From the IMG/VR virus record IMGVR_UViG_3300030380_006483: a DNA stretch of 64,000 nucleotides. One strand, 5' to 3'. This document shows positions 7,324-37,996 of this stretch, piece by piece (the first letter of the stretch is position 1; every line of letters begins with the position of its first letter). The DNA is from a virus. The notes beneath the pieces are model-generated. The model ran no database searches, had not been told where the DNA came from, and saw only the letters and a list, made by a program, of their open reading frames with translations. The translations under genes and the position numbers were made by a program.

Positions 7324-7355
7324 TTTGGATATCATAAATTAAGTTATTACATTAT
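7324..7355 (+). promoter_or_regulatory. Bacteroidota-type -33/-7 promoter for ssb-recA
   Basis: TTTG (7324-27), 20 nt spacer, TACATTAT (7348-55). Confidence 0.6.
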
Positions 7356-7385
7356 CAACCGTTTCAAATTAAAAAAAGTTATATT

Positions 7386-8165: not shown

Positions 8166-8169
8166 TTAA

Positions 8170-14954: not shown

Positions 14955-14970
14955 ATTAATTATTTAAAAA

Positions 14971-19467: not shown

Positions 19468-19924
19468 ATTTATATCAACAAAAATTTTTGATGGTTTTAG
19501 TTGTGTCTTTAGACAATGGAAAGCTGAAACTACACACTGTAGATACCTTCATGGTTATGGGGTATCATTTAAATTATGGTTCGAAGGTGAACTAGATGAA
19601 AGAAATTGGGTATGGGATTTCGGAGGAATGAAAAGAGCAAAAGGTCAAATAGATGGAATGTCTCCTAAAGCATGGATGGATAATATGTTTGATCATACCT
19701 TCTTAGTAGCAGAAGATGATCCCTTTAAGGAATCATTTATAAGAATGGATGAAGCAGGAGTAGCTCAAGTCAGAATAGTACCAGCTACTGGGGCAGAGAA
19801 GTTTGCCGAATTTATCTTTAATAAATTAAACCCATTTATCCAGGAAGAAACAGATGGTAGAGTAAAAGTAATAAAAGTAGAATTTAGAGAGCACGGAAAA
19901 AATAGTGCAATATATGAAGATTAG
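19460..19924 (+). CDS. queD: 6-carboxy-5,6,7,8-tetrahydropterin synthase (QueD-like variant)
   Basis: HCRYLHGY, DFGG, FDHT, EKFAE..V..EHGKNSA T-fold motifs; sits among que genes. Confidence 0.8.
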   Translation: MSKFISTKIFDGFSCVFRQWKAETTHCRYLHGYGVSFKLWFEGELDERNWVWDFGGMKRAKGQIDGMSPKAWMDNMFDHTFLVAEDDPFKESFIRMDEAGVAQVRIVPATGAEKFAEFIFNKLNPFIQEETDGRVKVIKVEFREHGKNSAIYED

Positions 19925-20678
19925 TCACGAGGTACCTAAGGTTTTATTAAATAATAGTCGAGAATGGAATGATTATGATTATTGTTTACCTCATCTTTTA
20001 GATGAAGATGAACAATATAAAAATTTTTTCTATGAATCTAAAAAACAAGGTCGTTATATTATTATGGATAATTCACTTCATGAATTAGGTAAAGCATATA
20101 ATCACGAAAGATTATTACACTGGATAACAGAATTACAACCAAATGAATTTATAGTACCTGATGTTTGGATGAAACAAGCCCAAACTTGTGCTCAGGCAAA
20201 ATATTGGTTACAATTTAAATATCCTAAAAATACTAAAATAGTAGCTGTAGTACAAGGTGAAGATAAAGTTAAAGCACATTTATGTGCTAGTTTAATTAGA
20301 GATTTAGGATATAATAAACTTTGTATATCTTATGGTGCGGGTTGGTATGGTGATAATCCTTTAAATAAAGCCCTAGGTAGAATAAATTTTGTTAAAGAGT
20401 TGTTAGAAGATAAAAGATATAAAGATACTAAATTTCATTTATTAGGTTGTGCTGTACCTCAAGAGTTTGGTTGGTATAGAAATGAATCTCAAATAGAATC
20501 AATTGATACCTCAAACCCAATAATGGCAGCTTTAGAAGGAATTTCGTACACAAAAAGTGGTTTAATAGAAAAACCAAAAGCAAATATGAATACTCATTTT
20601 GATATTGAACCTGAAAAAATTGATTATAATAAAATATTAAAAAACGTAAAAAGATTTAGAACAATAAATGGTTTATAA
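19914..20678 (+). CDS. Divergent TGT-fold protein, candidate DpdA-type 7-deazaguanine transglycosylase
   Basis: IMDNS (cf. TGT DSG), IVPD, VVQG, FHLLG and SIDTSNP occur in TGT order; lies between queD and queC. Confidence 0.6.
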   Translation: MKISHEVPKVLLNNSREWNDYDYCLPHLLDEDEQYKNFFYESKKQGRYIIMDNSLHELGKAYNHERLLHWITELQPNEFIVPDVWMKQAQTCAQAKYWLQFKYPKNTKIVAVVQGEDKVKAHLCASLIRDLGYNKLCISYGAGWYGDNPLNKALGRINFVKELLEDKRYKDTKFHLLGCAVPQEFGWYRNESQIESIDTSNPIMAALEGISYTKSGLIEKPKANMNTHFDIEPEKIDYNKILKNVKRFRTINGL

Positions 20679-20866
20679 TGGCAGAAATAATTAGACATAT
20701 TAGTGGAATGTGTGGTGAACATTTTCACCCAAACATTTGGCACCTTTTATTAGGTGGGGTTGGAATAACAACTATTTTATCGTATATTAGTTTATACTTA
20801 AAATGTAAATTTAAAGCGTTTGCCTATACGCTTAATAATACCTGGCAAAAATTTAAATTAAAATAG
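20678..20866 (+). CDS. Small hypothetical membrane protein
   Basis: 62 aa, one hydrophobic segment, CGEHFHP motif. Confidence 0.55.
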   Translation: MAEIIRHISGMCGEHFHPNIWHLLLGGVGITTILSYISLYLKCKFKAFAYTLNNTWQKFKLK

Positions 20867-20868
20867 AA

Positions 20869-21663
20869 ATGGCAAAAAATGTCGTAGTATCCTTATCTGG
20901 AGGGATGGATTCCTCAACTTTATTACTTAGATGTTTATCTGAGTATGATAACGTAACTGCTTTATCTTTTGATTATGGTCAAAAACATAGAGTAGAATTA
21001 GAAAGGGCTCAATCATTAATTAACTATGTTAATGAAAATGGGCAAAATGTAAATTACCAAGTTATTAAATTAGATGGTTTAGTTAATTTATTAGAATCAA
21101 ATTTAGTAGATGGGGGTGATGATGTACCTGAAGGACATTATGAAGAAGAAAATATGGTTGCAACTGTAGTACCTAATAGAAATAAAATATTTGCTTCTAT
21201 TACCCAAGCAGTAGCATTATCTATAGCAAATAAAACAGAAGAATCTTGTGATATTGCTTTAGGTATTCATGCTGGCGACCACGCAATTTATCCTGATTGT
21301 AGACAAGAATTTAGAGATGCTGATGATGCAGCATTTAGAGTTGGTAATTGGAACTCAGAAACTGTGGGTTACTTTACACCGTATTTAGAAACAGATAAAT
21401 TTGGAATACTACAAGATGGACAAATCCTTGTTAAGAACCTTGGAATTGATTTTAATGAAGTATATAGACGTACTAATACTTCTTATAAACCTTTCCCTAG
21501 CGGTAATAGCGATTATAAATCAGCGAGTTCAGTGGAAAGGATTGAAGCATTCATTAAATTGGGTGTCAGTGACCCTGTACAATATGAGGACGAAACTGGG
21601 CCGGTAGATTATGAAGTTGCGAGAAAACATGTTGAAAAGTTATTAGCAGAATATTCGGAATAA
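20869..21663 (+). CDS. queC: 7-cyano-7-deazaguanine synthase (QueC), Zn-cysteines absent
   Basis: SGGMDS, FDYGQKH, VPNRN, HAGDHAIYPDCR, VERIEAF. Confidence 0.9.
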   Translation: MAKNVVVSLSGGMDSSTLLLRCLSEYDNVTALSFDYGQKHRVELERAQSLINYVNENGQNVNYQVIKLDGLVNLLESNLVDGGDDVPEGHYEEENMVATVVPNRNKIFASITQAVALSIANKTEESCDIALGIHAGDHAIYPDCRQEFRDADDAAFRVGNWNSETVGYFTPYLETDKFGILQDGQILVKNLGIDFNEVYRRTNTSYKPFPSGNSDYKSASSVERIEAFIKLGVSDPVQYEDETGPVDYEVARKHVEKLLAEYSE

Positions 21664-21699
21664 TAATATTTATGGGTTATAAAATTAGAAAGTAAAAAA

Positions 21700-21843
21700 A
21701 TGCCAAAAATAAGTAAAGAAACAGGTAACCCACAAGTTAATACAGCTCGTGATAGTTTTAATAATAATGTACAAAAATTAAGTTTATTAGGGAAAACTAA
21801 AAAGGTGCAATGGGGTGATATGAGAAGATATCGCACCATTTAA
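21700..21843 (+). CDS. 47 aa hypothetical protein (not in ORF track)
   Basis: MPKISKETGNPQVNTARDSF...RRYRTI*; A-rich leader; fills the gap before the tRNA. Confidence 0.5.
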   Translation: MPKISKETGNPQVNTARDSFNNNVQKLSLLGKTKKVQWGDMRRYRTI

Positions 21844-21847
21844 AAAT

Positions 21848-21920
21848 TGCGGGGTGGAGCAGAAGGTAGCTCGCTGGGCTCATAACCCAGAGGTCAGAGG
21901 TTCGAATCCTCTCCCCGCCA
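21848..21920 (+). tRNA. tRNA-Met(CAT), initiator type
   Basis: Full cloverleaf; anticodon stem CTGGG/CCCAG with three G-C pairs; T1:C72 mismatch; T-loop TTCGAAT; CCA not encoded (CTA follows). Confidence 0.93.
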
Positions 21921-21927
21921 CTATTTT

Positions 21928-22446
21928 ATGGAAACAATAAATTTATTTCCCCAAATTTTAAAATCATTTAAGTATTCTAATAATACTAATTTTCTTTTAG
22001 AAGAAATAAATAAAATTAAAGCTTTATATCCAAATAAAGCTCCTTCTTTATTTAAAGATGCAATTTATACTTCTCCAAATTTTCTTTTTCAAAGTTATAA
22101 AAATTTTAAATTTTTAGAAAATGATATAAAATCATTAGTTTTAAAAAATTATAATAAAAATTGTAAAATTACTGATTCTTGGATTAATATATATTATAAA
22201 CATGGGTATAATGATTTCCATAACCATTTTAAAAATGATCTAGCAGGGGTATTATATTTAAAGGTTCCAAAATCTCATCCTGGGATTAATTTTCATAATA
22301 AACATAACCCTATTCAAATATTTAATTATAAACCTCCCTCTAATACAATAATCTTCTTTGATGGTGATCAATATCACAGTTCTTTTCCTAACCCTGAAAA
22401 TACTGAAAAAATAATTATAGCGTTTAATATATCTTTTAAAGATTAA
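21928..22446 (+). CDS. 2OG-Fe(II) oxygenase-like protein (TIGR02466-like)
   Basis: SWINIY..DFHNH..AGVLY..FFDG.QYH..IAFN. Confidence 0.75.
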   Translation: METINLFPQILKSFKYSNNTNFLLEEINKIKALYPNKAPSLFKDAIYTSPNFLFQSYKNFKFLENDIKSLVLKNYNKNCKITDSWINIYYKHGYNDFHNHFKNDLAGVLYLKVPKSHPGINFHNKHNPIQIFNYKPPSNTIIFFDGDQYHSSFPNPENTEKIIIAFNISFKD

Positions 22447-22454
22447 TATATTTA
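22423..22454 (+). promoter_or_regulatory. Possible promoter for the tail fibre gene
   Basis: TTTA-N20-TATATTTA (imperfect -33). Confidence 0.35.
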
Positions 22455-22498
22455 AACAAAAAGTTTACAATATTTATAGATATAAATTTATATATTAG

Positions 22499-24334
22499 AT
22501 GGCTACATTAACCAATAGGACTATAAGATCGACTTACGATCAACTTTTACAACTAGAAGATAATTTAATTCAAGACGGTTTTGGAACTCATTCTTTAAGT
22601 GGTTCCTATAATCTTACTGGAAGTCAATTTATATCTGGTAATCTTCATATTAATGGTACAGCTTCTATTGATTATTTAGTTTCTTCTTATGAATCATCAT
22701 CTATTATTTTTAGTTCAGGTTCAACAAAATTCGGAGATGACACTTCAGATACCCATGAATTTACGGGAAGTGTTCTAATAAGTGGTTCCGCTTTTAGTAC
22801 AAATTGGAGTGGATCCTTTACTGGTTCATTTATTGGTTTAGCAGATTCTTCATCTAATGCGACAAGAGCAGTTACTGCTTCACAAGCTGATAGAGCTACA
22901 ACATCTTCCCTTGCTAATAAGGCCTCTAATCTACAAATAGTTGGAGAAGATTCAAGTGCAGCCACTCATTATGTTCTTTTTGGCCCTAACTCATCAGGAG
23001 AATCTGATGTTAATGCAGATGGTAATTTAAATTATGTACCCAATACTGAAACTTTAACAGTTACTAAAGTAATAGGTAATTTAGAAGGAACAGCATCAAA
23101 TGCTGATACAGCATCTGTATTATTAGGTTCTGTAATTTCGGCTTCTCATTGTGAGACCGCTTCACTAGCAATTTCAACATCAGTAGTTAATGTTACTTCA
23201 ACTTCATTTGCAAACAGTGGTGATGGTCCATTTACTGGTTCATTTTCATCCAGTTTACCTTCATTATTATCCGGTTCATTTACAGGTTCCTTTACTGGCT
23301 CATTAGTTGGTAATACATCAGTTAGTAACATACTACAAACTGGTACTACTCAAACAACGGGATCTAATACTATTTCTGGGTCATTAACAATAACAGGAAG
23401 TTCAACTTTAGCAGTAAGAATAACTGGTAGTACAGCTTTAACAGGAAGTCTATTACAAAGTGGCAGTATTGTATCAACTGGAAGTTTATTACAAAAAGGT
23501 AGTACACAAATTTCAGGTTCTACTCTTTTATCAGGTTCATTACTTTTAACAGGTAGTAGTACCCTGGCATTAAGAGTTAGCGGTAGTACAGCTTTAACGG
23601 GTAGCTTACTACATAGTGGTAGTACAGCCCTAACGGGGAGTTTATTACAAAGTGGTAGTATTGCATTAACTGGAAGTTTATTACAGATTGGTACTACACA
23701 AACTACTGGATCTAATATTATATCTGGATCATTATTAATAACAGGTAGTTCTGCAATAGGACTTAGAATGTCTGGAAGTACGGCATTAACGGGTAGTGTT
23801 TTCCAAACAGGATCACTTAATGTAACTGGTAGTACTAATTTATCTGGATCTTTAGTAATAGTAGGAAATATTAATACGGGACAGGGTGTTACAGAAGTAT
23901 ATTTACAAAACCAAAATTTAAGAACAGCTGATTCAGTACAATTTAATGGACTAGGAGTTGGAACAGCACCATCAGGAGTAGCAGGAGCTATTTTAGCTAC
24001 TAATGATGTTGTAGCATTTGCTTCTTCAGATGAAAGATTAAAGGAAAATCTAGAACCAATTGGAAGTGCTACAGAAAAAATAGGACAATTAACTGGTTAT
24101 ACATTTGATTGGATTCCAATGGAAGGAATTCATGTACATTCAGGACATGATGTTGGAATTATTGCTCAAGAAGTAGAAAAGGTACTTCCTGAAGTTGTAG
24201 AAACAAGAAAAAATGGTTATAAAGCTGTTAAATATGAAAAACTTACAGCATTACTTATACAAGCCCTTAACGAACAACAAAAAGAAATTGATAACCTTAA
24301 AAGTAAGGTTGGATCGTTAGAAAATCGTTTGTAA
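22499..24334 (+). CDS. Tail fibre/spike-like protein with GS repeats and a C-terminal intramolecular chaperone (peptidase S74-like)
   Basis: SSDERLKEN..GYTFDW..DVGIIAQEVEKVLPEVV..YKAVKYEKL..LIQA plus terminal coiled coil; central GSxxx[ST] repeats. Confidence 0.85.
   Translation: MATLTNRTIRSTYDQLLQLEDNLIQDGFGTHSLSGSYNLTGSQFISGNLHINGTASIDYLVSSYESSSIIFSSGSTKFGDDTSDTHEFTGSVLISGSAFSTNWSGSFTGSFIGLADSSSNATRAVTASQADRATTSSLANKASNLQIVGEDSSAATHYVLFGPNSSGESDVNADGNLNYVPNTETLTVTKVIGNLEGTASNADTASVLLGSVISASHCETASLAISTSVVNVTSTSFANSGDGPFTGSFSSSLPSLLSGSFTGSFTGSLVGNTSVSNILQTGTTQTTGSNTISGSLTITGSSTLAVRITGSTALTGSLLQSGSIVSTGSLLQKGSTQISGSTLLSGSLLLTGSSTLALRVSGSTALTGSLLHSGSTALTGSLLQSGSIALTGSLLQIGTTQTTGSNIISGSLLITGSSAIGLRMSGSTALTGSVFQTGSLNVTGSTNLSGSLVIVGNINTGQGVTEVYLQNQNLRTADSVQFNGLGVGTAPSGVAGAILATNDVVAFASSDERLKENLEPIGSATEKIGQLTGYTFDWIPMEGIHVHSGHDVGIIAQEVEKVLPEVVETRKNGYKAVKYEKLTALLIQALNEQQKEIDNLKSKVGSLENRL
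23342..23866 (+). repeat. Intragenic 6/12-residue GS repeat array
   Basis: Repeated GSTALTGSLLQS-type units; DNA near-repeats such as ggtagtacagc(t/c)(t/c)taac. Confidence 0.85.
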
Positions 24335-24344
24335 ATTACCTTTA

Positions 24345-25454
24345 ATGAGTTATAATATTTTAGGAATTAACAGCAGTCATAATGGCTCAGTTTGTGTTTT
24401 ATGTGATGGGGAAATTGATTTTTTTGTAGAAGAAGAAAGATTTTCTAGAAATAAACATGAAGATACACCTGTAGAAATTTTAAAATATGTTGCTTCTAAA
24501 TATAAAATTGATGAAATTGCTATTGGTGGTTTAGAAATTCTTTTTGAAGCAAATGCTTCAAAAATTTATCAAAATTATTTAAAACTTTTATTCAAAAATA
24601 CTCCACTTACTAATTTATTAGGATCCCATCATCTTTGCCATGCTTTTTCTAGCTTTAGCAGTTCAGGTTTTAATAAAGCTTTATGTGTAGTTATAGATGG
24701 GTCTGGAAGTTTATTATATAGAAAAGAGGATGAAAAATTAATAGGAGTAGAAACTGAAAGTATTTTTACTTTTAAATATCCTACAAATATAAGCACTATA
24801 TATAAATCTTATAAAACTTTTAATCCTAATGATGATAAAAGTACAGATAGTAAATTAATGAATTTTAATATTACTTTAGGAAAATTATATGAAAGTATTA
24901 CTACTAAATTATTTGGACATTGGGTGTATGCCGGTAAGACTATGGGTTTATCTTCTTATGGAAAATATGACAAAAATATTCCTTCATTAATAATAAACCA
25001 AAGAGCTAATCCTAAATTTTTAGCAGGAAAAACTACAACTAATATTAAAATGGATCTTAATGATGTTGAAGGTACCATAAATACAAAGTATGATTATTTA
25101 TTTAAAGAAGAATTAAAGTCTAATATATGTTATCATTTACAAAATGAGATACAAGAAGTTGTAGGAGATATAATAGAAAAATATGTAAAAAAAACAGGAT
25201 TAAAAAAAGTTTGTGGCTCCGGAGGTTATTTTTTAAACTGTGTATCAAACTATTATTTAAAAAAAAGATTTCCTGATATAGATTTTTATTTTGACCCAAT
25301 ATCAAATGATGCAGGTATAGCATTAGGTGCTGCTAAATTATTGTGGCATATGAGAAAAAATGATACAACCATAAGACCTCAAAAAACATTATATAATGGG
25401 CCAAAATATACTAATAAAGAAATTTATAAAAAAATTCAAGAATATTTGGATTAG
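24345..25454 (+). CDS. Carbamoyltransferase (CmcH/NodU/TobZ family), N-terminal Kae1-like domain only (paralogue A)
   Basis: GINSSHNGS, EEERF.R.K, HHLCHA, VIDGSG, GKTMGLSSYG, GGYFLNC, DAG; ends after LYNGPKY with no YrdC-like domain. Confidence 0.85.
   Translation: MSYNILGINSSHNGSVCVLCDGEIDFFVEEERFSRNKHEDTPVEILKYVASKYKIDEIAIGGLEILFEANASKIYQNYLKLLFKNTPLTNLLGSHHLCHAFSSFSSSGFNKALCVVIDGSGSLLYRKEDEKLIGVETESIFTFKYPTNISTIYKSYKTFNPNDDKSTDSKLMNFNITLGKLYESITTKLFGHWVYAGKTMGLSSYGKYDKNIPSLIINQRANPKFLAGKTTTNIKMDLNDVEGTINTKYDYLFKEELKSNICYHLQNEIQEVVGDIIEKYVKKTGLKKVCGSGGYFLNCVSNYYLKKRFPDIDFYFDPISNDAGIALGAAKLLWHMRKNDTTIRPQKTLYNGPKYTNKEIYKKIQEYLD
25221..25303 (+). repeat. 83 nt near-identical repeat shared by paralogues A and B
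   Basis: 25221-25303 vs 28377-28459: 82/83 identical by manual alignment; partial copy around 31703-31781. Confidence 0.9.
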
Positions 25455-25476
25455 TTATATAGTTATATTATATTGG
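25445..25476 (+). promoter_or_regulatory. Bacteroidota-type promoter for queE-folE-PRTase
   Basis: TTTG-N20-TATATTGG; the -33 box lies in the last codons of paralogue A. Confidence 0.6.
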
Positions 25477-25491
25477 GACTAATATTAGTCC
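25476..25491. promoter_or_regulatory. Perfect 16 bp palindrome at the predicted TSS (operator or 5' hairpin)
   Basis: GGACTAATATTAGTCC equals its own reverse complement. Confidence 0.6.
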
Positions 25492-25525
25492 AAGTGACAG
25501 TAAAACCACTATAAAAAATTAACAT

Positions 25526-26299
25526 ATGCTTAAAAGAATAGACGATTATTCTAAACGTCTCCCAGTATTAGAATTATACACAGCAGTACAATCGGAGGGA
25601 TCCAGACAAGGATATCCTACTATTGTAGTTAGAACAACAGGCTGTACACACAGATGTTATTTTGGAGAAGGTGGATGGTGTGATAGCTGGTATACATCAA
25701 TACATCCTGAAAAAGGAAAATATAATTTTCAAGATATTATTGATATGTACGATAAACATCCCCATATAAAGGAGATGATGTTAACAGGAGGATCACCAAC
25801 AATGCATCCTGCTTTAGTAAATGAATTAACACACCTAGCAAATGAAAGAAATATTTTCATTACCATCGAAACTGAGGGATCTCATTTCCTTCCCACTGAC
25901 TTTCCTATTGGTCTCCTTAGTATTAGCCCTAAATTCAGTAATTCAGTTCCTACTCTCGGTGCTACAACTCCTCAAGGACATACTGTGGAGCAGAAGATGA
26001 TTGATAGACATAACAAGTATAGATTAAATAAAGAAGCTATAAAAAAGTCTATTGAATATCATAATGATTACCATATTAAACCCGTATTAGATAAAGATTT
26101 AACTATGGTAGGTGAAGTAGAAGAATTCATTAAAGAACTAGACATTCCAGATCATAAAATTTGGGCAATGCCAGCAGGTGATGATAGGGAATCATTATTT
26201 GAAAGTTATGGTCCTGTAATGAACTTTGTAAGGGATAGAGGTTGGAGATATACCGGTAGATCCCATATAATGGCCTTTGATACAGAAAGAGAGGTTTAA
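25526..26299 (+). CDS. queE: 7-carboxy-7-deazaguanine synthase (radical SAM)
   Basis: VQSEG..G..VRTTGC; CX3CX7C cluster motif; LTGGSP, ETEG, SISPK. Confidence 0.88.
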   Translation: MLKRIDDYSKRLPVLELYTAVQSEGSRQGYPTIVVRTTGCTHRCYFGEGGWCDSWYTSIHPEKGKYNFQDIIDMYDKHPHIKEMMLTGGSPTMHPALVNELTHLANERNIFITIETEGSHFLPTDFPIGLLSISPKFSNSVPTLGATTPQGHTVEQKMIDRHNKYRLNKEAIKKSIEYHNDYHIKPVLDKDLTMVGEVEEFIKELDIPDHKIWAMPAGDDRESLFESYGPVMNFVRDRGWRYTGRSHIMAFDTEREV

Positions 26300-26434
26300 A
26301 TGGATAAGGAAGAAGCACTCCAAATTTTAGAAGAAATAAAAGAAAATGTAAATGTCTGCTGTGCCGTTACTATGGAACCAGAAGATGTATTAGAATTAAT
26401 AGATAAATTAGAAAGTTATATAAATGAACAATAG
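26300..26434 (+). CDS. 44 aa acidic protein (not in ORF track)
   Basis: MDKEEALQILEEIKENVNVCCAVTMEPEDVLELIDKLESYINEQ*; coupled to queE and folE. Confidence 0.55.
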   Translation: MDKEEALQILEEIKENVNVCCAVTMEPEDVLELIDKLESYINEQ

Positions 26435-27116
26435 AAAACAACAACACACAGATTTAGAATCTGTACCAGTAGGTTACGCAAATGGTGTAGCACCTGGATT
26501 TCCTTTAACAGATAAGGAAAAACAAAAAATGATAGATCGTGCTGCAAAAGCATATGGTAAATTCTTAACTGAATTAAAATGTGATTGGGAAAATGATCCT
26601 AATTCGGCTGATACACCAAGACGTGTAGCTAAAGCCTATGTAAATGATTTATGGGAAGGTAGATATACTGCTATGAGTGAAGTAACATCTTTCCCAAGTG
26701 ATGGTTATGATGGTATAGTAATAGAAAGAAATATACCAATTACATCAATGTGTTCTCACCACCACCAAACTATAAAAGGTTTAGTACATATAGGTTATAT
26801 CGCAGATGAAGATGGTAGAGTAGTTGGATTATCTAAATTAAATAGGATAGTAGAATTATTTGGTAGAAGAGGAGCAATACAAGAACAATTAACATCAGCG
26901 ATTCACAATGCTGTAAACACTATTTGTACGAATAATAAAGGTGTTATTGTTACAGTAGTAGCTACACATAATTGTGTTAGTTGTAGAGGAGTAAAACATC
27001 ATGGAGCTTCAATGGTTACAACAAAAGCATCTGGTGTATTTATGCAAAATGAAAACTTAGCTAGAAAGGAGTTTTTTGATTCAATTAAAGTTAATAATGG
27101 AAATCATCCTGTATAA
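26424..27116 (+). CDS. folE: GTP cyclohydrolase I
   Basis: DTPRRVAK, SMCSHH, GLSKLNR, IQEQLT, HNCVSCRGV. Confidence 0.93.
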   Translation: MNNRKQQHTDLESVPVGYANGVAPGFPLTDKEKQKMIDRAAKAYGKFLTELKCDWENDPNSADTPRRVAKAYVNDLWEGRYTAMSEVTSFPSDGYDGIVIERNIPITSMCSHHHQTIKGLVHIGYIADEDGRVVGLSKLNRIVELFGRRGAIQEQLTSAIHNAVNTICTNNKGVIVTVVATHNCVSCRGVKHHGASMVTTKASGVFMQNENLARKEFFDSIKVNNGNHPV

Positions 27117-27553
27117 TGGTAATAGAATTAAATGATAAAGCATTCCTATCATGGGATGACATAGAAAAACAAGTTGATAAACTTGTAGAACAAATAAATA
27201 AAATGGATAAAAAACCATTTTACATTTATGGTGTGCCTCGTGGAGGAGCCATTCCAGCTGTATGGTTATCTCATAAAACTGGTATAAAATATCAACAAAT
27301 TAATTCATCCCAAATATCAAAATCAGCAGATTTATCTCATGTATTGATAGTAGATGATATTTGTGATTCAGGAGAAACAATACAAAAACTTAAAGAAGAT
27401 TTCCCTAAGTGTTTAACTGCAACTTTATATCATAAAGAATCAGCAATTGATAAACCAGATATTTATGGAGAAATATCCACGTATAATTGGTTATATTTTC
27501 CTTGGGAAAACCAACAATCCTCAGAAGTAAGAGATAACACATATGGGTTATAA
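27116..27553 (+). CDS. Type I phosphoribosyltransferase (Gpt/XGPRT-like)
   Basis: GVPRGG, PRPP loop LIVDDICDSGET, W.YFPWE. Confidence 0.88.
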   Translation: MVIELNDKAFLSWDDIEKQVDKLVEQINKMDKKPFYIYGVPRGGAIPAVWLSHKTGIKYQQINSSQISKSADLSHVLIVDDICDSGETIQKLKEDFPKCLTATLYHKESAIDKPDIYGEISTYNWLYFPWENQQSSEVRDNTYGL

Positions 27554-28607
27554 TATTCTAGGAGTTACTCCTGGTCATAATGGTTCTATAGCTTTAGTTT
27601 CAAACGGAAAATTAGTTTTTTATTTAGAAGAAGAAAGATTATCTAAGGTAAAAAAAGATGCTAATCCATTAAAGACACTTTATTTTTCATTACAAAAATA
27701 TAAGATAGATGAAGTAGTATTATGTGGTGCCGGACGTCAATCACCAAACTTAGTCCGTAAAGGAGAGGATTTATATTATTCTATATCTAGAAAATTTTAT
27801 CCTAAAGTAAAATTCACTAGTTATGAAGATCATCATCATCTAACACATGCAGCTTCTTCATTTTATACTTCTGGTTTTCAAAAATCTTTAGGAGTAGTAA
27901 TTGATGCCCAAGGATCCAATTTTAATTATAAAGGAGAAAAAATATTTGAAAATGATTCTTTATTTTATTGTGAATATCCTAATAATATTAATCCAATCCA
28001 TAAAATATATCTTTCTGATTCTATTAGTCATTCAACTAAACAAGAAAAAATTACACCCTTTTTTTCAACAGCAAAGGTTTATGAAGCAGTAAGTGAATAT
28101 TTAAATTTTCATGAAGAAGAGGGTAAAACTATGGGTTTATCTTCTTATGGTAAGTCTAATTCTTTTATTTTAGATTTTTTAAAGGATGGAATAATAAACC
28201 CTAAATATTATACACATGAAAAAACTTATGGTTCTATATACCCAAAAATGAAGTTCCCTAAAAATATCCCTCCTAAAGATATAGCATGGGAAATTCAAAA
28301 TAAATCCCAACAAATAGTAGGTGATTATATAGAAAAAGGAATTAAAGAAACAGGATTAAAACAAGTTTGTTGCGCTGGAGGTTATTTTTTAAACTGTGTA
28401 TCAAACTATTATTTAAAAAAAAGATTTCCTGATATAGATTTCTATTTTGACCCAATATCCCATGATGGTGGAACCTCAATTGGAGCAGCTTTATATAGAT
28501 GGTACAACCACTCTCAGGATAAGAGTATAAGACCTAGAAAAAATTTGTATAATGGTTTTAAATATTCTAAAAAAGAATTAAAAAAAATAATTAAAAAATA
28601 TTTATAA
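27543..28607 (+). CDS. Carbamoyltransferase, N-terminal domain only (paralogue B)
   Basis: GVTPGHNGS, EEERLSK.K, HHLTHA, GKTMGLSSYG, GGYFLNC, DGG; ends after LYNGFKY. Confidence 0.85.
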   Translation: MGYNILGVTPGHNGSIALVSNGKLVFYLEEERLSKVKKDANPLKTLYFSLQKYKIDEVVLCGAGRQSPNLVRKGEDLYYSISRKFYPKVKFTSYEDHHHLTHAASSFYTSGFQKSLGVVIDAQGSNFNYKGEKIFENDSLFYCEYPNNINPIHKIYLSDSISHSTKQEKITPFFSTAKVYEAVSEYLNFHEEEGKTMGLSSYGKSNSFILDFLKDGIINPKYYTHEKTYGSIYPKMKFPKNIPPKDIAWEIQNKSQQIVGDYIEKGIKETGLKQVCCAGGYFLNCVSNYYLKKRFPDIDFYFDPISHDGGTSIGAALYRWYNHSQDKSIRPRKNLYNGFKYSKKELKKIIKKYL

Positions 28608-28609
28608 TT

Positions 28610-28996
28610 ATGAAAGACTTTAATTCAAAAGATAAATCTAAAGGGTTAGGAGATACAATAGCAAAAATTACTAATGCTACTGGTTTAGATAAAATAGCCG
28701 ATGCTGTAGCTAAAGCAGCAGGCGCCGAAGATTGTGGTTGTAATAAAAGGAGAAAAACATTAAATGAACTTTTTCCTTACACTAAAAAAACAGAAATTAA
28801 AAAACCACATATTAATACTAAACCTTTAGATAAAATTACTGGAAAATATGAGGTTATTCAAAAAATTCATTGTACCTTACCAGAATTAGGAAGGATAACT
28901 TTTAATAAAGGTTCTGTTTTATTAATAGATAAAAAACACCCTTTATATAAAGATATTTCTTTTTACTATAAAAAAAATATTATTAAAAAAATATAA
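28610..28996 (+). CDS. Hypothetical protein with GLGD..DCGC motif
   Basis: KGLGDTIAKIT..DCGCNKRR..LN.LFPY, a pattern I recall from phage ORFs; function unknown. Confidence 0.65.
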   Translation: MKDFNSKDKSKGLGDTIAKITNATGLDKIADAVAKAAGAEDCGCNKRRKTLNELFPYTKKTEIKKPHINTKPLDKITGKYEVIQKIHCTLPELGRITFNKGSVLLIDKKHPLYKDISFYYKKNIIKKI

Positions 28997-30736
28997 ATGG
29001 CATATAATATTCTAGGAATTAATCCTGGCCATAATGGTTCTGCCGCCGTAATTTCAGATGGTAAGTTAGTTTATTATTTAGAAGAAGAAAGATTAACAAA
29101 AGAAAAAAGAGATGGAAATCCTTTTAAAACTATAATCGATATTTGTTCTAAGTTTTCTATTAACGAACTAATAATAGGGGGAACAAACACCCCAGCTGAA
29201 AGGTCAACTTTATCTTATACTAAAGAAAATCCCTATTTTTCTCTTGTAAGAAAATTAAATTTAGGAATAGAAGACTATACAAATTTATCCAGCAGCCACC
29301 ATTTATTGCATGCTTTTAGTAGCTTACATAATTCCCCATTTCAATCTGCTGCTGTTATAGTAGTAGATGGATGTGGGTCTTGGCTACACTATAATGATAT
29401 TGCTCCTTTTTCTTCACTTGCAATAGAAGAAGGTAAAAATAATAATGTTCATGAAGCTGAAAGTATATATGAGATAAATACAAATAAATTTCCAATTGAA
29501 GAGGGGATAGAAAAACATTATGTTAATTATATTAGTAATAATATTAATGTTGAAACTAAATTTATTAATAGAAATCCTGGAATAGTTAAAGTATATGAAG
29601 GTATAACCGATTATTTAGGTTTTCATCCTTTAGATGCAGGAAAAGTAATGGGTTTATCTTCTTATGGTAAGTCAAATCCAAACATTCCTCCTTTATTTGT
29701 AAATCATAAAGGTAATTTAGATATATTTAAACCATCATACCCAGCAAAATGTGAATTATTAACTAACAACACCCCAGTACTACATGGTAATCAAAAAACC
29801 AAAGACTTTCATCATGATAAATCAAAACTTAATATGGTTTATGCTGATTTAGCTTATGAAGTACAAACCCAAACAGAAAAAGAAATACATCACTTAATTG
29901 AAAAAGCTATAAATTTAACAGGTAATAATAATATTTGTATTACTGGAGGGTATGGGTTAAATTGTGTAGCTAATTATAACATGAAAAAAAAATTCCCTAA
30001 GATAAACTTTTTTCATGATCCTGTATCTTTTGATGGGGGAATATCAATAGGTGCAGCATACTTAGGATGGTTAATAAAAAAAGAGAAAAACGATAAATCA
30101 AAATCATTTTCACTTTATTTAGGCCCTAAATATTCTTTAAAAAAATATAAAAAACAAATTAAAAATTATTCAAAAATGTTTAACACTTATAAAGTAAATT
30201 ATAAAGATGTAGCTAAAATAATTTCAGAAAGAAATATAGTTACAATATTCCAAGGCAGATCAGAGGCTGGTCCTCGTGCTTTAGGAAATAGGTCCATTTT
30301 ATACGATCCAACAGACCCTAATGGTAAGGATTTTGTAAATAAAGTTAAAAAAAGAGAATGGTTTAGACCATTTGCTGGTACTGTTTTATTAGAAAAAGCT
30401 AATGAATATTTTGATATGGCTGGTTTAAAAGAATCTCCGTTTATGATGTATGCAATGGATGTTTGGCCTGATAAACAAGATAAAATTCCTTGTATTACCC
30501 ACGTAGATGGTACTTGTAGAATCCAAACATTAACCGAAGAACAAAATCCACATTATTATAAATTAATTCAAGAATTTGAAAAAATAACAGGTGTACCTAT
30601 TTTATTTAATACTTCATTTAATTTAGCAGGTGATCCACTTGTAGAGACAATTGAAGATGCATTAGAAACAATGCTTAAAAGTGAAATGAAATATATGTAT
30701 GTTCCTGAATTAGAAATGCTTTTAGAGAAAAAATAA
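28997..30736 (+). CDS. Full-length carbamoyltransferase (Kae1-like plus YrdC-like domains; paralogue C)
   Basis: N-domain motifs plus GRSEAGPRALGNRSIL, KKREWFRPFA, SPFM, HVDGTCRIQT, LFNTSFN. Confidence 0.92.
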   Translation: MAYNILGINPGHNGSAAVISDGKLVYYLEEERLTKEKRDGNPFKTIIDICSKFSINELIIGGTNTPAERSTLSYTKENPYFSLVRKLNLGIEDYTNLSSSHHLLHAFSSLHNSPFQSAAVIVVDGCGSWLHYNDIAPFSSLAIEEGKNNNVHEAESIYEINTNKFPIEEGIEKHYVNYISNNINVETKFINRNPGIVKVYEGITDYLGFHPLDAGKVMGLSSYGKSNPNIPPLFVNHKGNLDIFKPSYPAKCELLTNNTPVLHGNQKTKDFHHDKSKLNMVYADLAYEVQTQTEKEIHHLIEKAINLTGNNNICITGGYGLNCVANYNMKKKFPKINFFHDPVSFDGGISIGAAYLGWLIKKEKNDKSKSFSLYLGPKYSLKKYKKQIKNYSKMFNTYKVNYKDVAKIISERNIVTIFQGRSEAGPRALGNRSILYDPTDPNGKDFVNKVKKREWFRPFAGTVLLEKANEYFDMAGLKESPFMMYAMDVWPDKQDKIPCITHVDGTCRIQTLTEEQNPHYYKLIQEFEKITGVPILFNTSFNLAGDPLVETIEDALETMLKSEMKYMYVPELEMLLEKK

Positions 30737-30740
30737 AATT

Positions 30741-31937
30741 ATGAAAATATTAGGATTTAATCCTTCTCATCATAGCTCTACTTGTATAGTAAATAATGGT
30801 GAAATAGAATACTTCATCCAAGAAGAAAGAATAAATAAAATGAAATATGTTTCTTTCCCAATGGAATCTTTTATAGAACTCCTAAAAAACAGAACCCCAG
30901 ATGTAGTATGTTTCGCTGGTGCTAGTATATCTTTTCCACTTTGTGGCCAATCAGATGACAACCTTTGGCATGTAATAACTGATATTTACTTAAAAGAAAA
31001 TTATGAATTTTTTGATTTTTCTTTTAGTTATGATCAAAAGAATAAACCTAATGATGGAGGATTCCATCATATTGCACATGCTTCTAGTGCTTTTTACAAT
31101 TCAGGCTTTAAAGAAGCTTTATGTTTAGTAGCAGATGGATTAGGATCTATTATTTTAAATAGTGGTACTGAAACTGAAACTCTTTTTAAATTTTCATATC
31201 CATCTTTTTTTGAAATACTACATAAAAAACTATATATGGACAACTTTCCTAAACATGTATCAGAATCTCTCCCAGATAATATGACAATAACAACAAAAGT
31301 AAACCTAAGTAGAGTTTATGAAACTGTAACAATGTGGTTAGGGTTTAGTAGGAATGATGCTGGTAAAACTATGGGTTTATCTTCTTATGGAAAATATAAT
31401 AAAAATATTCCTAATTTTTTAGATAAAGAAGGAGATGGAGACCCCAATGTAATTATTGTTGACCGTGATAGAAAAGGAGAATATGAAATTGAAAAAGGAT
31501 ATCAGTGTACTTTTATAGATAAAGAAAAGAATCCTTATTTAAAAAACCAAGATGCAACAAAATGGCACCATAATAAATCAAATATAACAGACTTAGAAAA
31601 AGACGTAGCTTGGAAAGTTCAAGATGAAACACAAAAAAGAATAGGTGATATAATAGAAAAAGGAATTAAAGAAACAGGATTAAAACAAGTTTGTTGTAGT
31701 GGGGGTTATTTTTTAAATTGTGTTGCAAACTATTATCTTGTAAAAAGATTTCCTGATATAGATTTTTATTTTGACCCAATAGCTAATGATGCTGGTACAG
31801 CTATGGGAATAGCTCAATTAGTTTATCATCACAAAACTAGAGATACTACTATAAGACCTTTAAAATCTTTATATTTAGGTCCAAAATATCCAAAAGAAGA
31901 ACTATTAAAAGAAATTAAAAAATATGTGGATAACTAA
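30741..31937 (+). CDS. Carbamoyltransferase, N-terminal domain only (paralogue D)
   Basis: GFNPSHHSS, QEERI, HHIAHA, GKTMGLSSYG, GGYFLNC, DAG; ends after LYLGPKY. Confidence 0.85.
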   Translation: MKILGFNPSHHSSTCIVNNGEIEYFIQEERINKMKYVSFPMESFIELLKNRTPDVVCFAGASISFPLCGQSDDNLWHVITDIYLKENYEFFDFSFSYDQKNKPNDGGFHHIAHASSAFYNSGFKEALCLVADGLGSIILNSGTETETLFKFSYPSFFEILHKKLYMDNFPKHVSESLPDNMTITTKVNLSRVYETVTMWLGFSRNDAGKTMGLSSYGKYNKNIPNFLDKEGDGDPNVIIVDRDRKGEYEIEKGYQCTFIDKEKNPYLKNQDATKWHHNKSNITDLEKDVAWKVQDETQKRIGDIIEKGIKETGLKQVCCSGGYFLNCVANYYLVKRFPDIDFYFDPIANDAGTAMGIAQLVYHHKTRDTTIRPLKSLYLGPKYPKEELLKEIKKYVDN

Positions 31938-31956
31938 TTTAAAAATATTATATTAT
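31925..31956 (+). promoter_or_regulatory. Possible promoter for the MazG-like gene
   Basis: TGTG-N20-TATATTAT inside the end of paralogue D, same register as the 25445 promoter. Confidence 0.45.
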
Positions 31957-31960
31957 CAAT

Positions 31961-32464
31961 ATGAAAAAATCAAACGTACCTTTTGTAAATGAAGTAGAAG
32001 ATTTTAATAATTTAATGTCTAAACCAAATAATTATACACCTACTATTCCTGAAAAAAAAGAATGGCAATTTGTATATGACTTTGTTTTAGAAGAATTAGA
32101 AGAATATAAAGAAGCATGTGAAAAGGGAGACATTGTAGAAATATTAGATGCTTTATGTGATATAGCTTATGTATCTTTAGGAAATGGTACTATGCTTCAT
32201 GGCCTAAAAGATAAAATATGGCCAGCTTATCAGGAAGTTCAGGCATCAAATATGTCAAAGGCATGTAAAACTGTAAACGAAGCTATTGAAACTACTCTTA
32301 AAAGATCTGAGGAACAAGGGGAACCTTGTCATTGGGAACAAGTAGGCGATATGTATATTGTGTATAGAACACGTGATCGTAAAGTAATGAAATCACTTAC
32401 TTACTTTAGACCCGATCTAAAACAATTCTTTACCGATGAAGAAATTACTAACAGTACTAAGTAA
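31961..32464 (+). CDS. MazG-like all-alpha NTP pyrophosphohydrolase (PRA-PH-like)
   Basis: LEELEEY..EILDALCDIAYV..EVQASNMSK..KVMK. Confidence 0.82.
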   Translation: MKKSNVPFVNEVEDFNNLMSKPNNYTPTIPEKKEWQFVYDFVLEELEEYKEACEKGDIVEILDALCDIAYVSLGNGTMLHGLKDKIWPAYQEVQASNMSKACKTVNEAIETTLKRSEEQGEPCHWEQVGDMYIVYRTRDRKVMKSLTYFRPDLKQFFTDEEITNSTK

Positions 32465-34342: not shown

Positions 34343-36094
34343 ATGTATAAAAAAATATACGAGCAAGGTAGAGGAGAAAATAAACATTTAATACATCTTT
34401 GGACAGACGAGGGTTACGAAAAGATTGAATGGAACAACTATGCTTATAAAGAATGTTCGCCTAATGATGCAGAATTTAAAGGTTTGAAAGGTGAACCACT
34501 TCGTAAAACACACACTTGGGATAGAAAAACCCCTAAACTCCACTTTAGTGATATCTCAGCTCACCAAAAATTCCTTATAGAAAAATATGGTATTGACGAT
34601 GAACCTTCTACTTCACATAAGGAGGTTTTTTTTGATATCGAGTGTGAGATGGGAGGAGCATTGACAGAAGAATATATTTCTAATGCACCTAAGCCAATTA
34701 CTTCTATTGCTTGGTATGATAAACAAGCAGATTGGTGGTCAATCGTTATTTTAGATAAAAAAGGTCAATTAAAACATACTAAAACTAAAAATAAAGAAAT
34801 TATACCTTTACCACATGAGGCAGATCTATTAGATACATTTTTAAATAAAATGGAAGAAATTCAACCAGATATGTTAATTGGGTATAATAGTGACTATTTT
34901 GATATTCCTTATTTATACTATAGAATGTGTAATGTGTTGGGAGAAACAGATGCAAAAAGATTATCCCCTATAGGAATAGTTAAATACAAAAAGAATAATC
35001 AATATTGGTATAAAAAAGACCAATTTGTAGATATAGCAGGTGTTGAATCTCTTGATTATATGAGATTACATAAAAAATATAGTTGGGAGGATGAACCAAG
35101 TTGGAAGTTAGATTCTATTGGAGAAAAATATGCTGGTATAAATAAAATTGAATATGATGGTTCTTTAGATAGATTATTTGAAGAGGATATACATAAATTT
35201 ATTCAATATAACTTTGTTGATGTTGAAATATTAGTTGAATTAGATAAAAAATTACAATATATAGCTTTAACAAAAAATTTAGCCCATAAAGGTAAAGTAA
35301 AATATAGTGAAGTGTATGCTTCATCTAAAATCCATGATGGTGCTATCTCAGCTTACCTATTATCTCAGGGAATAATACCCCCAGGACGCCCTAAGGGGGA
35401 AAGTAAATTAAATTATGCTGGTGGTTACTTATTTTGCCCTAAAGCAGGGTTATACAAATATATGTTTGATGAAGATTTAACATCACTATATCCTTCTATT
35501 ATAATGACTTTAAATATAGGTAGAGAAACTATTATAGGAAAAATAATTACAGATACATTACCCGAAAAATTAGAAGATTTTGGTCCTTATGGTGGTAAAT
35601 CTGATCGAAATAACTATCTAGGTTTAGGTGATTTAAAAGAAATGGATCCAGATGATGAAATTAGAGTTATGGATCCTAATGAAAATATTCAAAACACAAC
35701 TGTAGGTAAAGTAATTGAAGTAATAGAAAAGAATAATTTTTCAATAGCGGCAAATGGAACCTTTTTTAGAACTGATAAACAATCAGTATTATCTACTATT
35801 TTAAATAAATGGTTTGATGAAAGGGTCATTTATAAAAATAGAATGAAGCACTGTTACCAAAAGGGTGATAATGAAGGTGGTGCTAAAAATCATTTACTAC
35901 AATATACAATGAAAATTTTACTGAATTCTTTATATGGAGCTACTGCCTTACCATCATTTAGATATGGTTTACCAAAATCTATACTAAGTGAAGCAATTAC
36001 ATTATCAGGGTGGAGAATCATACAAGAATCTGCATTAGTTGCTAATACACATATGAATAAAGTTTTAAGGAATGAAATAAAGTTAGCATTATAA
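34343..36094 (+). CDS. Family B DNA polymerase, N-terminal part (exonuclease, motifs A and B)
   Basis: FFDIEC, GYNSDYFDIPY, YNFVDV, DLTSLYPSII, KILLNSLYG; no DTDS. Confidence 0.9.
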   Translation: MYKKIYEQGRGENKHLIHLWTDEGYEKIEWNNYAYKECSPNDAEFKGLKGEPLRKTHTWDRKTPKLHFSDISAHQKFLIEKYGIDDEPSTSHKEVFFDIECEMGGALTEEYISNAPKPITSIAWYDKQADWWSIVILDKKGQLKHTKTKNKEIIPLPHEADLLDTFLNKMEEIQPDMLIGYNSDYFDIPYLYYRMCNVLGETDAKRLSPIGIVKYKKNNQYWYKKDQFVDIAGVESLDYMRLHKKYSWEDEPSWKLDSIGEKYAGINKIEYDGSLDRLFEEDIHKFIQYNFVDVEILVELDKKLQYIALTKNLAHKGKVKYSEVYASSKIHDGAISAYLLSQGIIPPGRPKGESKLNYAGGYLFCPKAGLYKYMFDEDLTSLYPSIIMTLNIGRETIIGKIITDTLPEKLEDFGPYGGKSDRNNYLGLGDLKEMDPDDEIRVMDPNENIQNTTVGKVIEVIEKNNFSIAANGTFFRTDKQSVLSTILNKWFDERVIYKNRMKHCYQKGDNEGGAKNHLLQYTMKILLNSLYGATALPSFRYGLPKSILSEAITLSGWRIIQESALVANTHMNKVLRNEIKLAL

Positions 36095-36122: not shown

Positions 36123-37652
36123 ATGAATATATCAATTATAGGAGGAGGTACAGCAGGTTGGTTATCTGCTCTTCATCTAAATAAAATAAATCCAACAGCT
36201 GATATTTCTTTAATTGAATCTAAAGATATAGGAATAGTAGGAGTTGGTGAAGGAGCAGTTCCTCTTTTTGGGGATATGTTATTAGATCTTAATATAGACA
36301 TTATTGATTTTGTTAATAGTGTTGACGGTACTTTTAAATTAGGGATTTCTTTTGAAGGTTGGAAAAATTTAGATCATAAATTTTTATATGGGTTTCCTAA
36401 TTTTAATAGTAATGATGTAGCTAATTTTGAAAAAACTAAATTTGGTTCACAGAAATATGATATATATCCTATTTTTGCAAATATGATAGCTAATTCTCAA
36501 GATTGTAATATAATGCAAAATTCAATTTTAAGTTACTTAAATAAAGTTCCTTTTACTTTTGATGAAGAATCTAAAAATGGTATCACCCAAGATGGAATTT
36601 CTCACGTATCTTTCCATTTTGATGCCTACAAAGCAGCTCAGTATTTTAGAAAAATTTCAGAATCTAGAGGTATAAAAAGAATTGAAGGAAAAGTTATTGA
36701 TTTTAAATCTTCTAAAGACCAAAATATAAAAAGTATTATTACTGAAGATAAAAAAGAACATAAATGTGATTTTGTTTTTGATTGTACAGGGTTTGCTAAA
36801 TTAATTATAGGTAAGCACTTTAAATCAAAATGGACTAGCTATAAAAGCCACTTAACTACTAATGAAGTTATAAGTTTTAGATTAAAGTATAAAGAAAATG
36901 AAGAAGTATTTCCTTATACTAAGTCGATTACAATGAAAAATGGTTGGATGTGGCAGATTCCATTACAAAGTAGAATTGGGGCTGGGTATGTTTATGATAA
37001 TAGATACATTACTGAATCTCAAGCTAAAGAAGAAGTTGAAGAATTTTTAGGTGAAGAGATAGAAATATTAAAAAAAATTAATTTTGAACCTGGAATTTTT
37101 GAAGAGGGATGGATTAAAAATTGTGTATCAATAGGTCTTTCTAGTGCCTTTGTAGAACCTTTAGAATCTACTTCTATAATGTTTACTATTTTGCAATTAA
37201 GATTTTTTAAAAGTAAAGATTTATTAGAACCAAATGAATTACTTCAAAAAAGATATAATAAATATCAAACAAAATCATTTAAATCAATAATTGATTTAAT
37301 TCAATTACATTATTTGTGTGATAGAAATGATACTAAATTTTGGAAAGATAGAAAAAAATTACCTATAACAACTCCTTTACAAAAACGTTTAAATGATTTT
37401 AAAAAATATCCTCTATCAGATTCAACATTTTTTGATGGTGTATGGGGGGCTTTAGGGTTTTTTGTAGTAGGATATGAAAGTAGTGTTAAAAATTTTCCTA
37501 AAAAACTCTACCAATTTTATAATAAAAAGCATAATTTTGATGGATTATTAAAAAATTGGATTAAAGATTATAAACAATATTTTGATAATAAACTACCTAA
37601 ATACTTTAAACATAAAGATTTATTAGATTATTTTAAAACAATAAAACCATGA
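36123..37652 (+). CDS. Flavin-dependent (tryptophan-type) halogenase
   Basis: GGGTAGW, GVGEG, TFKLGI (catalytic Lys position), DCTGF, WMWQIP signature, EPLEST. Confidence 0.85.
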   Translation: MNISIIGGGTAGWLSALHLNKINPTADISLIESKDIGIVGVGEGAVPLFGDMLLDLNIDIIDFVNSVDGTFKLGISFEGWKNLDHKFLYGFPNFNSNDVANFEKTKFGSQKYDIYPIFANMIANSQDCNIMQNSILSYLNKVPFTFDEESKNGITQDGISHVSFHFDAYKAAQYFRKISESRGIKRIEGKVIDFKSSKDQNIKSIITEDKKEHKCDFVFDCTGFAKLIIGKHFKSKWTSYKSHLTTNEVISFRLKYKENEEVFPYTKSITMKNGWMWQIPLQSRIGAGYVYDNRYITESQAKEEVEEFLGEEIEILKKINFEPGIFEEGWIKNCVSIGLSSAFVEPLESTSIMFTILQLRFFKSKDLLEPNELLQKRYNKYQTKSFKSIIDLIQLHYLCDRNDTKFWKDRKKLPITTPLQKRLNDFKKYPLSDSTFFDGVWGALGFFVVGYESSVKNFPKKLYQFYNKKHNFDGLLKNWIKDYKQYFDNKLPKYFKHKDLLDYFKTIKP

Positions 37653-37996
37653 AATACGAAGCAGAAAGTAGACCTTGGGGAATGTATGAAGTTTTATTAG
37701 ATTCAGATGAATGTAAAGTAAAAAGAATTACAGTTGCTCCAGATTCAAAACTATCATATCAATATCACCATAAAAGACAAGAACAATGGACGGTAATTAA
37801 AGGAAATTTAACTATCATTTTAGATGATGAAAAAGTTTTTAGATCACCTGGAGAATCAATAAAAATTCCATTAGGAGCTAGACATAGAGCTTGGAATGAA
37901 ACAGATGAATTAGTACAATTTATAGAAGTTCAAACCGGAACCTATTTTGGTGAGGATGATATAGTAAGAATAGAAGACGATTATAATAGAAAATAA
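37649..37996 (+). CDS. Cupin, mannose-6-phosphate isomerase type II C-terminal-like
   Basis: RPWG.YEVL..VKRITV..LSYQYHHKRQEQW..EVQTG.YFGEDDIVR.EDDY.R. Confidence 0.88.
   Translation: MKYEAESRPWGMYEVLLDSDECKVKRITVAPDSKLSYQYHHKRQEQWTVIKGNLTIILDDEKVFRSPGESIKIPLGARHRAWNETDELVQFIEVQTGTYFGEDDIVRIEDDYNRK

Follow-up and report, generated by a model that had tools for sequence, protein, structure and literature searches.

A 64,000-nucleotide (nt) stretch of DNA from IMG/VR virus record IMGVR_UViG_3300030380_006483 (hereafter the window), whose source looks like an uncultured marine T4-like phage, was found to encode four paralogous carbamoyltransferases of the class III (TobZ/NodU) type, here named A, B, C and D. 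While C contains both a Kae1-like transfer domain and the YrdC-like domain that would form carbamoyl-AMP, A, B and D are half-members of the family that carry the transfer module only (N-only proteins). In related phages, the YrdC-like domain is encoded by a separate gene (C-only) that sits in the slot of C and starts where the N-only proteins end, and one such relative has no full-length enzyme. On these grounds, the supply of carbamoyl-AMP in trans to the N-only enzymes is well supported by comparative genomics and is probably how the system works.

One two-domain enzyme and three transfer-domain paralogues

All four proteins scored above the gathering cut-off (24 bits) of the Pfam family Carbam_trans_N (PF02543) and thus have the Kae1-like domain of the class III carbamoyltransferases (NodU/CmcH/TobZ). 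Carbam_trans_C (PF16861), the YrdC-like domain, was detected in the same chain in C only. Protein lengths are given in amino acids (aa).

24345-25454, + strand: A, N-only (Kae1-like) carbamoyltransferase of the A-type subfamily, 369 aa (PF02543, 87.5 bits; no PF16861)
27543-28607, + strand: B, N-only (Kae1-like) carbamoyltransferase of the B-type subfamily, 354 aa (PF02543, 81.4 bits)
28997-30736, + strand: C, the sole full-length enzyme of the window, 579 aa (PF02543 and PF16861)
28997-30175, + strand: N-terminal Kae1-like domain and linker of C, residues 1-393 (PF02543, 83.1 bits)
30176-30736, + strand: predicted YrdC-like carbamoyl-AMP-forming domain of C, from Met394 (PF16861, 208 bits, residues 406-571)
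30741-31937, + strand: D, N-only (Kae1-like) carbamoyltransferase of the D-type subfamily, 398 aa (PF02543, 77.7 bits)

The Pfam results bear out the architecture claimed in the original prediction, which was made from the letters of the window alone and held that C has both domains and A, B and D the transfer domain only. The motifs and the shared end point listed there were also recovered. In the order A, B, C, D, the HHxxHA motif reads HHLCHA, HHLTHA, HHIAHA and HHLLHA, the VxD motif VIDG, VIDA, VADG and VVDG, and the DxG motif NDAG, HDGG, NDAG and FDGG; GK(T/V)MGLSSYG and GGY(F/G)LNC motifs are found in the paralogues as well, and A, B and D end 14, 13 and 15 residues, respectively, after LYxGxKY. 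When the YrdC-like domain of C was compared with all six frames of the window by tblastn, it matched C alone. The 64-kb window therefore has no second YrdC-like domain, and no open reading frame (ORF) for such a domain, nor a remnant of one, lies 3' of A, B or D, again as had been claimed.

All genes of the window are on the + strand. A starts 10 nt downstream of an S74 fibre gene and is followed by a QueE-like radical SAM gene, B lies between a phosphoribosyltransferase (PRTase) gene and a 128-aa ORF, and D starts 5 nt downstream of C and is followed by a PRA-PH/MazG-like gene. At the guanine-plus-cytosine (GC) content of the window, 28%, ~8% of random codons would be stops, and chance therefore does not account for open frames of 354-398 codons. 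Identity among A, B and D is 40-42%, compared with 31-38% between each of them and C.

Related phages encode the two halves as separate genes

The slot held by C in the window is occupied in the relative L025 (= G001) by a 189-aa ORF that contains the YrdC-like domain only. G001 is a 166-kb IMG/VR record rated 100% complete by CheckV, and a search of the whole record with both domains gave exactly one match to PF02543, an N-only protein, and one to PF16861, the C-only protein, with no full-length enzyme. On the 116-kb contig L088, the gene order is fibre, A-type N-only, QueE, FolE, PRTase, B-type N-only, 129-aa ORF, C-only (186 aa) and PRA-PH, and in G028 a single C-only gene accompanies two N-only genes. 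Stand-alone YrdC-like genes encode 186-189 aa; a search with the 189-aa protein returned 2986 short relatives, many of them, among the matches listed, exactly 186 aa long. In L025, an N-only carbamoyltransferase directly after the C-only gene is fused in frame to a PRA-PH/MazG-like protein (7046-8686, 546 aa).

The two halves adjoin without gap or overlap in the alignment: C-only proteins begin (MF..YK(I/V)TP) at the residue right after the last N-only residue, and Met394 of C falls on the alignment position at which the stand-alone C-only genes of relatives have their start codon. A methionine is present at this junction in 94 of 111 database matches to full-length enzymes of the C clade and in each of the 12 loci whose C-domain identity is 80% or more, as opposed to 3 of 71 more ordinary full-length enzymes. 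The shared junction indicates that N-only, C-only and C-like full-length genes belong to one 'splittable' lineage. Internal initiation at Met394 might release the C-domain from C, and the sequence around it speaks neither for nor against this. Gene starts in the window have A/T-rich leaders and no Shine-Dalgarno sequences, and the context upstream of Met394 is as A-rich as that of genuine starts; the junction methionine is conserved no better than the surrounding domain. The 'split' genes of S-CAM8-type cyanophages were considered and rejected, as the split is an annotation overlap and the gene is full-length.

The donor domain is far more uniform than the transfer domain to which it is joined. 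Across 116 full-length relatives, identity to the C-domain of C is 86-100% (median 89%), while the median identity to its N-domain is 46%. In A, B and D, the last ~105 codons show 64-66% mutual amino acid identity, compared with 35-37% over the remainder, and this C-terminal third is 42-46% identical to C, so the extra conservation is not common to C. At the DNA level, the last ~300 nt of the three genes (25140-25439, 28296-28595 and 31620-31919) are 75-76% identical to one another and 61% identical to C, and their synonymous divergence is about half of that seen over the remaining gene length. The conserved 3' end of A, B and D may reflect a common partner surface or another constraint specific to N-only proteins, or it may be the product of partial gene conversion.

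The N-only proteins descend from one truncated ancestor

A search with A returned more than 1300 related proteins, and 117 of the best 120 were N-only (345-399 aa); the N-only relatives come from Tara, JGI, ENA and Logan marine data. Among the matches listed, every N-only relative with the LYxGxxY motif (116/116) ends 13-17 residues past it, and 73 end after exactly 14. When the Kae1-like region of 40 N-only and 40 full-length rows was placed in a maximum-likelihood tree, only one change of architecture was needed. The split between N-only and full-length proteins has a support of 73 in the Shimodaira-Hasegawa-like approximate likelihood ratio test (SH-aLRT), and 37 N-only rows fall in a clade with support 95. 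A, B and D belong to three distinct N-only subfamilies in this tree, B grouping with L088b, L001b and L003b and D with L086x and P0085, and A-, B- and D-type orthologues hold the same syntenic positions in relatives. Because a single change accounts for the N-only form, the shared end point is inherited from one truncated ancestor and is not convergent; judging by the tree, one truncated lineage gave rise to A, B and D as three old subfamilies, and the truncation did not arise independently in each.

The original prediction had taken the shared end point as the mark of a selected architecture. Selection itself stands, but the end point is explained by common descent, and what shows selection is the retention of the N-only form in more than 1000 sequences. 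The ratio of non-synonymous to synonymous substitution rates (dN/dS), which had been named as a check, was not near 1: for A it is 0.26 against a 95%-identical relative and 0.41 against an 85%-identical one. For more distant N-only pairs, in which dS approaches saturation, the values are 0.25-0.55, and the YrdC-like domain of C gives 0.09-0.14. These values indicate that the N-only genes are under purifying selection. Individual copies can nonetheless decay, since a c-type N-only gene that is intact (373 aa) in contig L003 is interrupted in L002, a near-identical contig, where it forms two ORFs (14675-15629).

No close N-only relative was found in cultured phages, where the best matches are ~35% identical and lie inside full-length genes, and megablast gave no DNA-level match to the region among phage records. 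Scanning IMG/VR with the N-only alignment returned almost exclusively ordinary full-length enzymes. Matching the N-only motif FPDIxFYF(D/E)P as a DNA pattern gave 10 records, mostly full-length, one of which encodes two N-only proteins and a single C-only protein.

Both halves retain their catalytic residues

In an alignment of 25 N-only sequences (alignment A1), 52 columns are invariant, reaching to the last residues. H12, H95, H99 and D118 (A numbering) are among the invariant positions, and D322 is at least 90% conserved. A profile built from these sequences matched TobZ, GdmN, NovN and VtdB in the PDB, the N-only residues aligning with H14/H114/H118/D137 of TobZ. In GdmN, H27 is the general base and H133/H137/D156/D333 are the Fe ligands (PMC9633730); the N-only histidine base and four metal ligands correspond to these same residues, and the base and the H, H, D, D ligands are retained in A, B, C and D alike. 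The AlphaFold model of A (predicted local distance difference test (pLDDT) 86, predicted template modelling score (pTM) 0.86) was most similar to TobZ, GdmN, VtdB and NovN, followed by Kae1, TsaD and Qri7, with the Kae1/TsaD structures ranking lower at template modelling (TM) scores of 0.52-0.58. Neither Pfam nor NCBIfam gave a TsaD family match for the phage proteins, which instead matched NodU and HypF. The loss of metal-binding and catalytic residues that is typical of TsaB/YeaZ was not seen, as A, B and D keep all ligands and the histidine base. By these comparisons, A, B and D are complete Kae1-like domains with intact catalytic residues and are predicted to be transfer enzymes.

The YrdC-like domain of C, modelled alone, has a pLDDT of 88 and superimposes on the YrdC-like domains of VtdB, GdmN and TobZ with a TM score of 0.92 and a root mean square deviation of 1.7-1.8 Å. 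It also matches stand-alone YrdC/TsaC. The catalytic motif of such domains, KxR...SxN (PMC9654439), is invariant (K56, R58, S145 and N147) in the domain of C and in 22 stand-alone C-only proteins.

Probable supply of carbamoyl-AMP in trans and its alternatives

If the N-only enzymes depend on a donor encoded elsewhere in the genome, the two should be found together, and in many records they are. The tandem of a full-length gene followed by an N-only gene recurs in L101, L105, L107, L121, L128, L130 and L133 in addition to the window, and a 157,933-bp contig has N-only genes in its deazaguanine locus and a full-length gene plus another N-only gene elsewhere. A C-domain protein is also encoded on at least 7 of the 14 contigs above 20 kb that carry N-only genes, as judged from contigs matched by length across three protein searches; this is a lower bound, drawn from the best 120 matches per search and directly confirmed for two contigs. 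Every whole or large record checked (G001, G028, the L088 contig and the 157,933-bp contig) has a C-domain. In L088, G001 and G028, N-only genes are paired with a C-only gene instead of a full-length copy.

The system would then be an unbundled class III carbamoyltransferase of marine T4-like phage. The YrdC-like domain of C would convert carbamoyl phosphate and ATP to carbamoyl-AMP, which would be used in cis by the Kae1-like domain of C itself and in trans by A, B and D, in which the catalytic base, metal site and adenylate pocket are kept, each of the three serving a different hydroxyl or amine acceptor. Delivery might occur by free diffusion, as for threonylcarbamoyl-AMP (TC-AMP) in the synthesis of N6-threonylcarbamoyladenosine (t6A), or by docking onto the C-domain, perhaps within the hetero-oligomer that the original prediction envisaged. 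Supply in trans had been put forward in the original prediction and is supported by the C-only genes in the slot of C and by G001; the passage of carbamoyl-AMP between polypeptides, as well as the identities of the acceptors, is what we infer. A bolder form of the proposal, which we offer only tentatively and consider rather doubtful, is a plug-and-play kit in which one near-invariant 186-aa donor, alone or possibly released from C at Met394, would serve fast-diversifying stand-alone Kae1-like acceptor modules (A-, B-, D- and c-types) that may dock through their conserved C-terminal third, for the combinatorial carbamoylation of virion glycans and/or 7-deazaguanine DNA.

Several observations weigh against supply in trans. 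TobZ and HypF have a channel for labile carbamoyl-AMP that is formed by their two domains (PMC9654439), a feature that by analogy argues that tethering matters, and in C the docking face of the C-domain is presumably occupied by its own N-domain. An N-only dN/dS of 0.3-0.5 denotes moderate constraint only. The genomic context is uninformative, since genes that appear to be accessory inserts (see below) do not reveal their acceptor by adjacency. Finally, at six related loci (L001, L003, L090, L098, L108 and L142), which each have two to four N-only genes, no C-domain was found within ~10 kb, so that the constant company of a donor seen in the whole and large records is not apparent over this local range.

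These six loci favour an alternative in which the N-only enzymes are independent of the phage YrdC-like domain and use another acyl-adenylate, host TC-AMP or a QueC-type adenylate, or have some other ASKHA-type ATP-dependent activity. The position of A and B inside a QueD/QueC/QueE/FolE/PRTase cluster would fit such a role, and the C-terminal third common to A, B and D but not C could mean a changed nucleotide pocket. The presence of a C-domain in all whole or large records checked points the other way, however, as do the unchanged base and metal ligands of carbamoyl transfer, the C-only genes, which would have no obvious use if they lacked N-only partners, and the occurrence of the 7-deazaguanine module without a carbamoyltransferase gene in 19 related records; we consider a different donor unlikely. 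The recurrent pairing of a full-length with an N-only gene could also be read as a sign that A, B and D are non-catalytic partners of C that tune its specificity or stability, as TsaB/YeaZ does for TsaD, since Kae1-family proteins often heterodimerise with a paralogue and TsaD-TsaB structures are among the fold matches. TsaB is not known to retain the catalytic histidine and the metal ligands, whereas the N-only proteins keep the histidine and all four ligands. In addition, L088, G001 and G028 pair their N-only genes with a C-only gene and so offer no full-length N-domain to partner, and TobZ is reported to be monomeric (PMC9633730), which together make a partner role improbable.

That A, B and D are functionless, decaying remnants of duplicated full-length genes is the least credible account, and we give it hardly any weight. 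The dN/dS of N-only genes (0.26-0.5) does exceed that of the C-domain (about 0.1), and broken copies exist in relatives, such as the L002 gene in two pieces. Against decay stand ORFs that are intact at 28% GC, a family of more than 1000 members with a fixed end point in 116 of 116 scored, the 52 invariant columns that reach the last residues, the single origin of the clade, whose old subfamilies are kept as orthologues in syntenic positions, and dN/dS values well below 1.

Comparison with described systems

All characterized class III carbamoyltransferases have both domains in one chain (PMC9633730), and this canonical two-domain architecture is that of C. The class III enzymes TobZ, GdmN, NovN, VtdB, NodU/NolO and CmcH (PDB 3VEN, 7VYJ, 9S2T and 7XB6) share the same two folds and catalytic residues with the phage proteins, which differ in that three of the four window paralogues have no YrdC-like domain and that relatives encode it as a separate 186-aa protein. 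A phage carbamoyltransferase that modifies 5-hydroxymethylcytosine likewise belongs to class III and depends on carbamoyl phosphate and ATP (Yang et al. 2021, eLife, PMC8670742). It usually has a PRA-PH/MazG-like gene among its neighbours, as in the window, but it is a 63-kDa full-length protein encoded beside a dCMP hydroxymethylase (a thymidylate synthase homologue), while the neighbours in the window are 7-deazaguanine genes and no thymidylate synthase homologue was found among the ~60 window ORFs scanned with Pfam.

The original prediction had stated that no system like this is described, which overlooks t6A synthesis, a pathway in which TsaC/Sua5 acts on its own to form TC-AMP and the labile adenylate then moves to a second protein, TsaD/Kae1 (PMC9654439). 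There (TsaC/Sua5 with TsaD/Kae1/Qri7), as would be the case in the phage set, the adenylate-forming and transfer steps reside on separate polypeptides, and the 186-aa C-only proteins resemble TsaC/YrdC in size and fold. The t6A system uses threonylcarbamoyl-AMP as donor and tRNA A37 as acceptor, with one donor and one acceptor enzyme, whereas the phage proteins match carbamoyltransferase families and not TsaD, and several acceptor modules would share one donor. In HypF, YrdC-like and Kae1-like domains cooperate in carbamoyl transfer to HypE without any paralogue expansion; HypF is of a different family from the phage proteins, which give weak TIGR00143 matches only. By analogy, the phage system would combine the chemistry of the TobZ type with the organisation of t6A synthesis and with several acceptor enzymes per donor. 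A literature search found no paper describing split class III carbamoyltransferases. If the proposal is true, a large and conserved phage lineage in which each donor is encoded apart from the several transfer halves that it serves would show that channelling is not essential, would provide a natural modular system for carbamoylation engineering, and would point toward further carbamoylated products, glycans or modified DNA, in abundant ocean phages.

Gene context and candidate acceptors

The four carbamoyltransferase genes are inserted in a complete 7-deazaguanine set (19460-32464), the other members and neighbours of which are as follows.

19460-19924, + strand: QueD, 7-deazaguanine cluster
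19905-20678, + strand: weakly DpdA-like ORF, 257 aa (NF041059, E=0.0016; DUF6610)
20869-21663, + strand: QueC, 7-deazaguanine cluster
25526-26299, + strand: QueE-like radical SAM protein
26424-27116, + strand: FolE, 7-deazaguanine cluster
27116-27553, + strand: XPRT-like PRTase, 7-deazaguanine cluster
28610-28996, + strand: 128-aa ORF with no Pfam or NCBIfam match
31961-32464, + strand: PRA-PH/MazG-like protein, 7-deazaguanine cluster

The same module occurs without a carbamoyltransferase gene in the local loci of more than 12 related IMG/VR records, and neither carbamoyltransferase domain was found in 19 module-bearing records searched whole, six of which are at least 90% complete. Because the module exists without them, the carbamoyltransferase genes appear to be accessory inserts, like the oxygenase genes that adjoin them. 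The 128-aa ORF, always found between the PRTase gene and the C slot or PRA-PH, has an invariant GDTIAK...DCGC..R signature (alignment A2), and hundreds of further IMG/VR phage contigs have ORFs that match its first ~60 residues. It was rejected as a component of the carbamoyltransferase system, as it belongs to the 7-deazaguanine module that occurs without carbamoyltransferases.

Our best guess for the acceptors is hydroxyl groups on the sugars of glycans that the phage makes, such as those that may decorate the Ser/Thr-rich fibre, with 7-deazaguanine nucleotides or DNA as a second guess. Class III enzymes act mostly on hydroxyl groups, often those of sugars. The A-type gene lies directly 3' of the Ser/Thr-rich S74 fibre gene in those relatives that have an A-type gene, and carbamoyltransferase genes stand among sugar genes in L086 and in HTVC008M, whose gene is full-length and lies within a sugar cluster. 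Glycans are ranked above modified DNA or nucleotides because of this chemistry, the adjacency to the fibre gene, the sugar-gene neighbours and a genome rich in glycan genes. The latter (48848-63982) comprise two GT1 and one GT2 glycosyltransferases, a GDP-mannose 4,6-dehydratase, epimerases, a GT10-like fucosyltransferase, a DegT-type protein, a thiamine diphosphate (ThDP) enzyme and PanB, and a phosphomannomutase gene is located at 39140-39904.

The T4-like gene set of the window includes gp32, a DnaB-like helicase, ribonucleotide reductase and a clamp loader. Genes for a GroEL-like protein (42328-43968) and Hsp20 (41265-41678) are also present, and the core genes are interspersed with single 2-oxoglutarate (2OG)-Fe(II) oxygenase genes, of which there are at least seven. 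Two ORFs (34343-36094 and 38262-39185) together encode the family B DNA polymerase, and between them lie genes for a tryptophan-halogenase-like flavoenzyme (36123-37652) and a cupin/mannose-6-P-isomerase-like protein (37649-37996).

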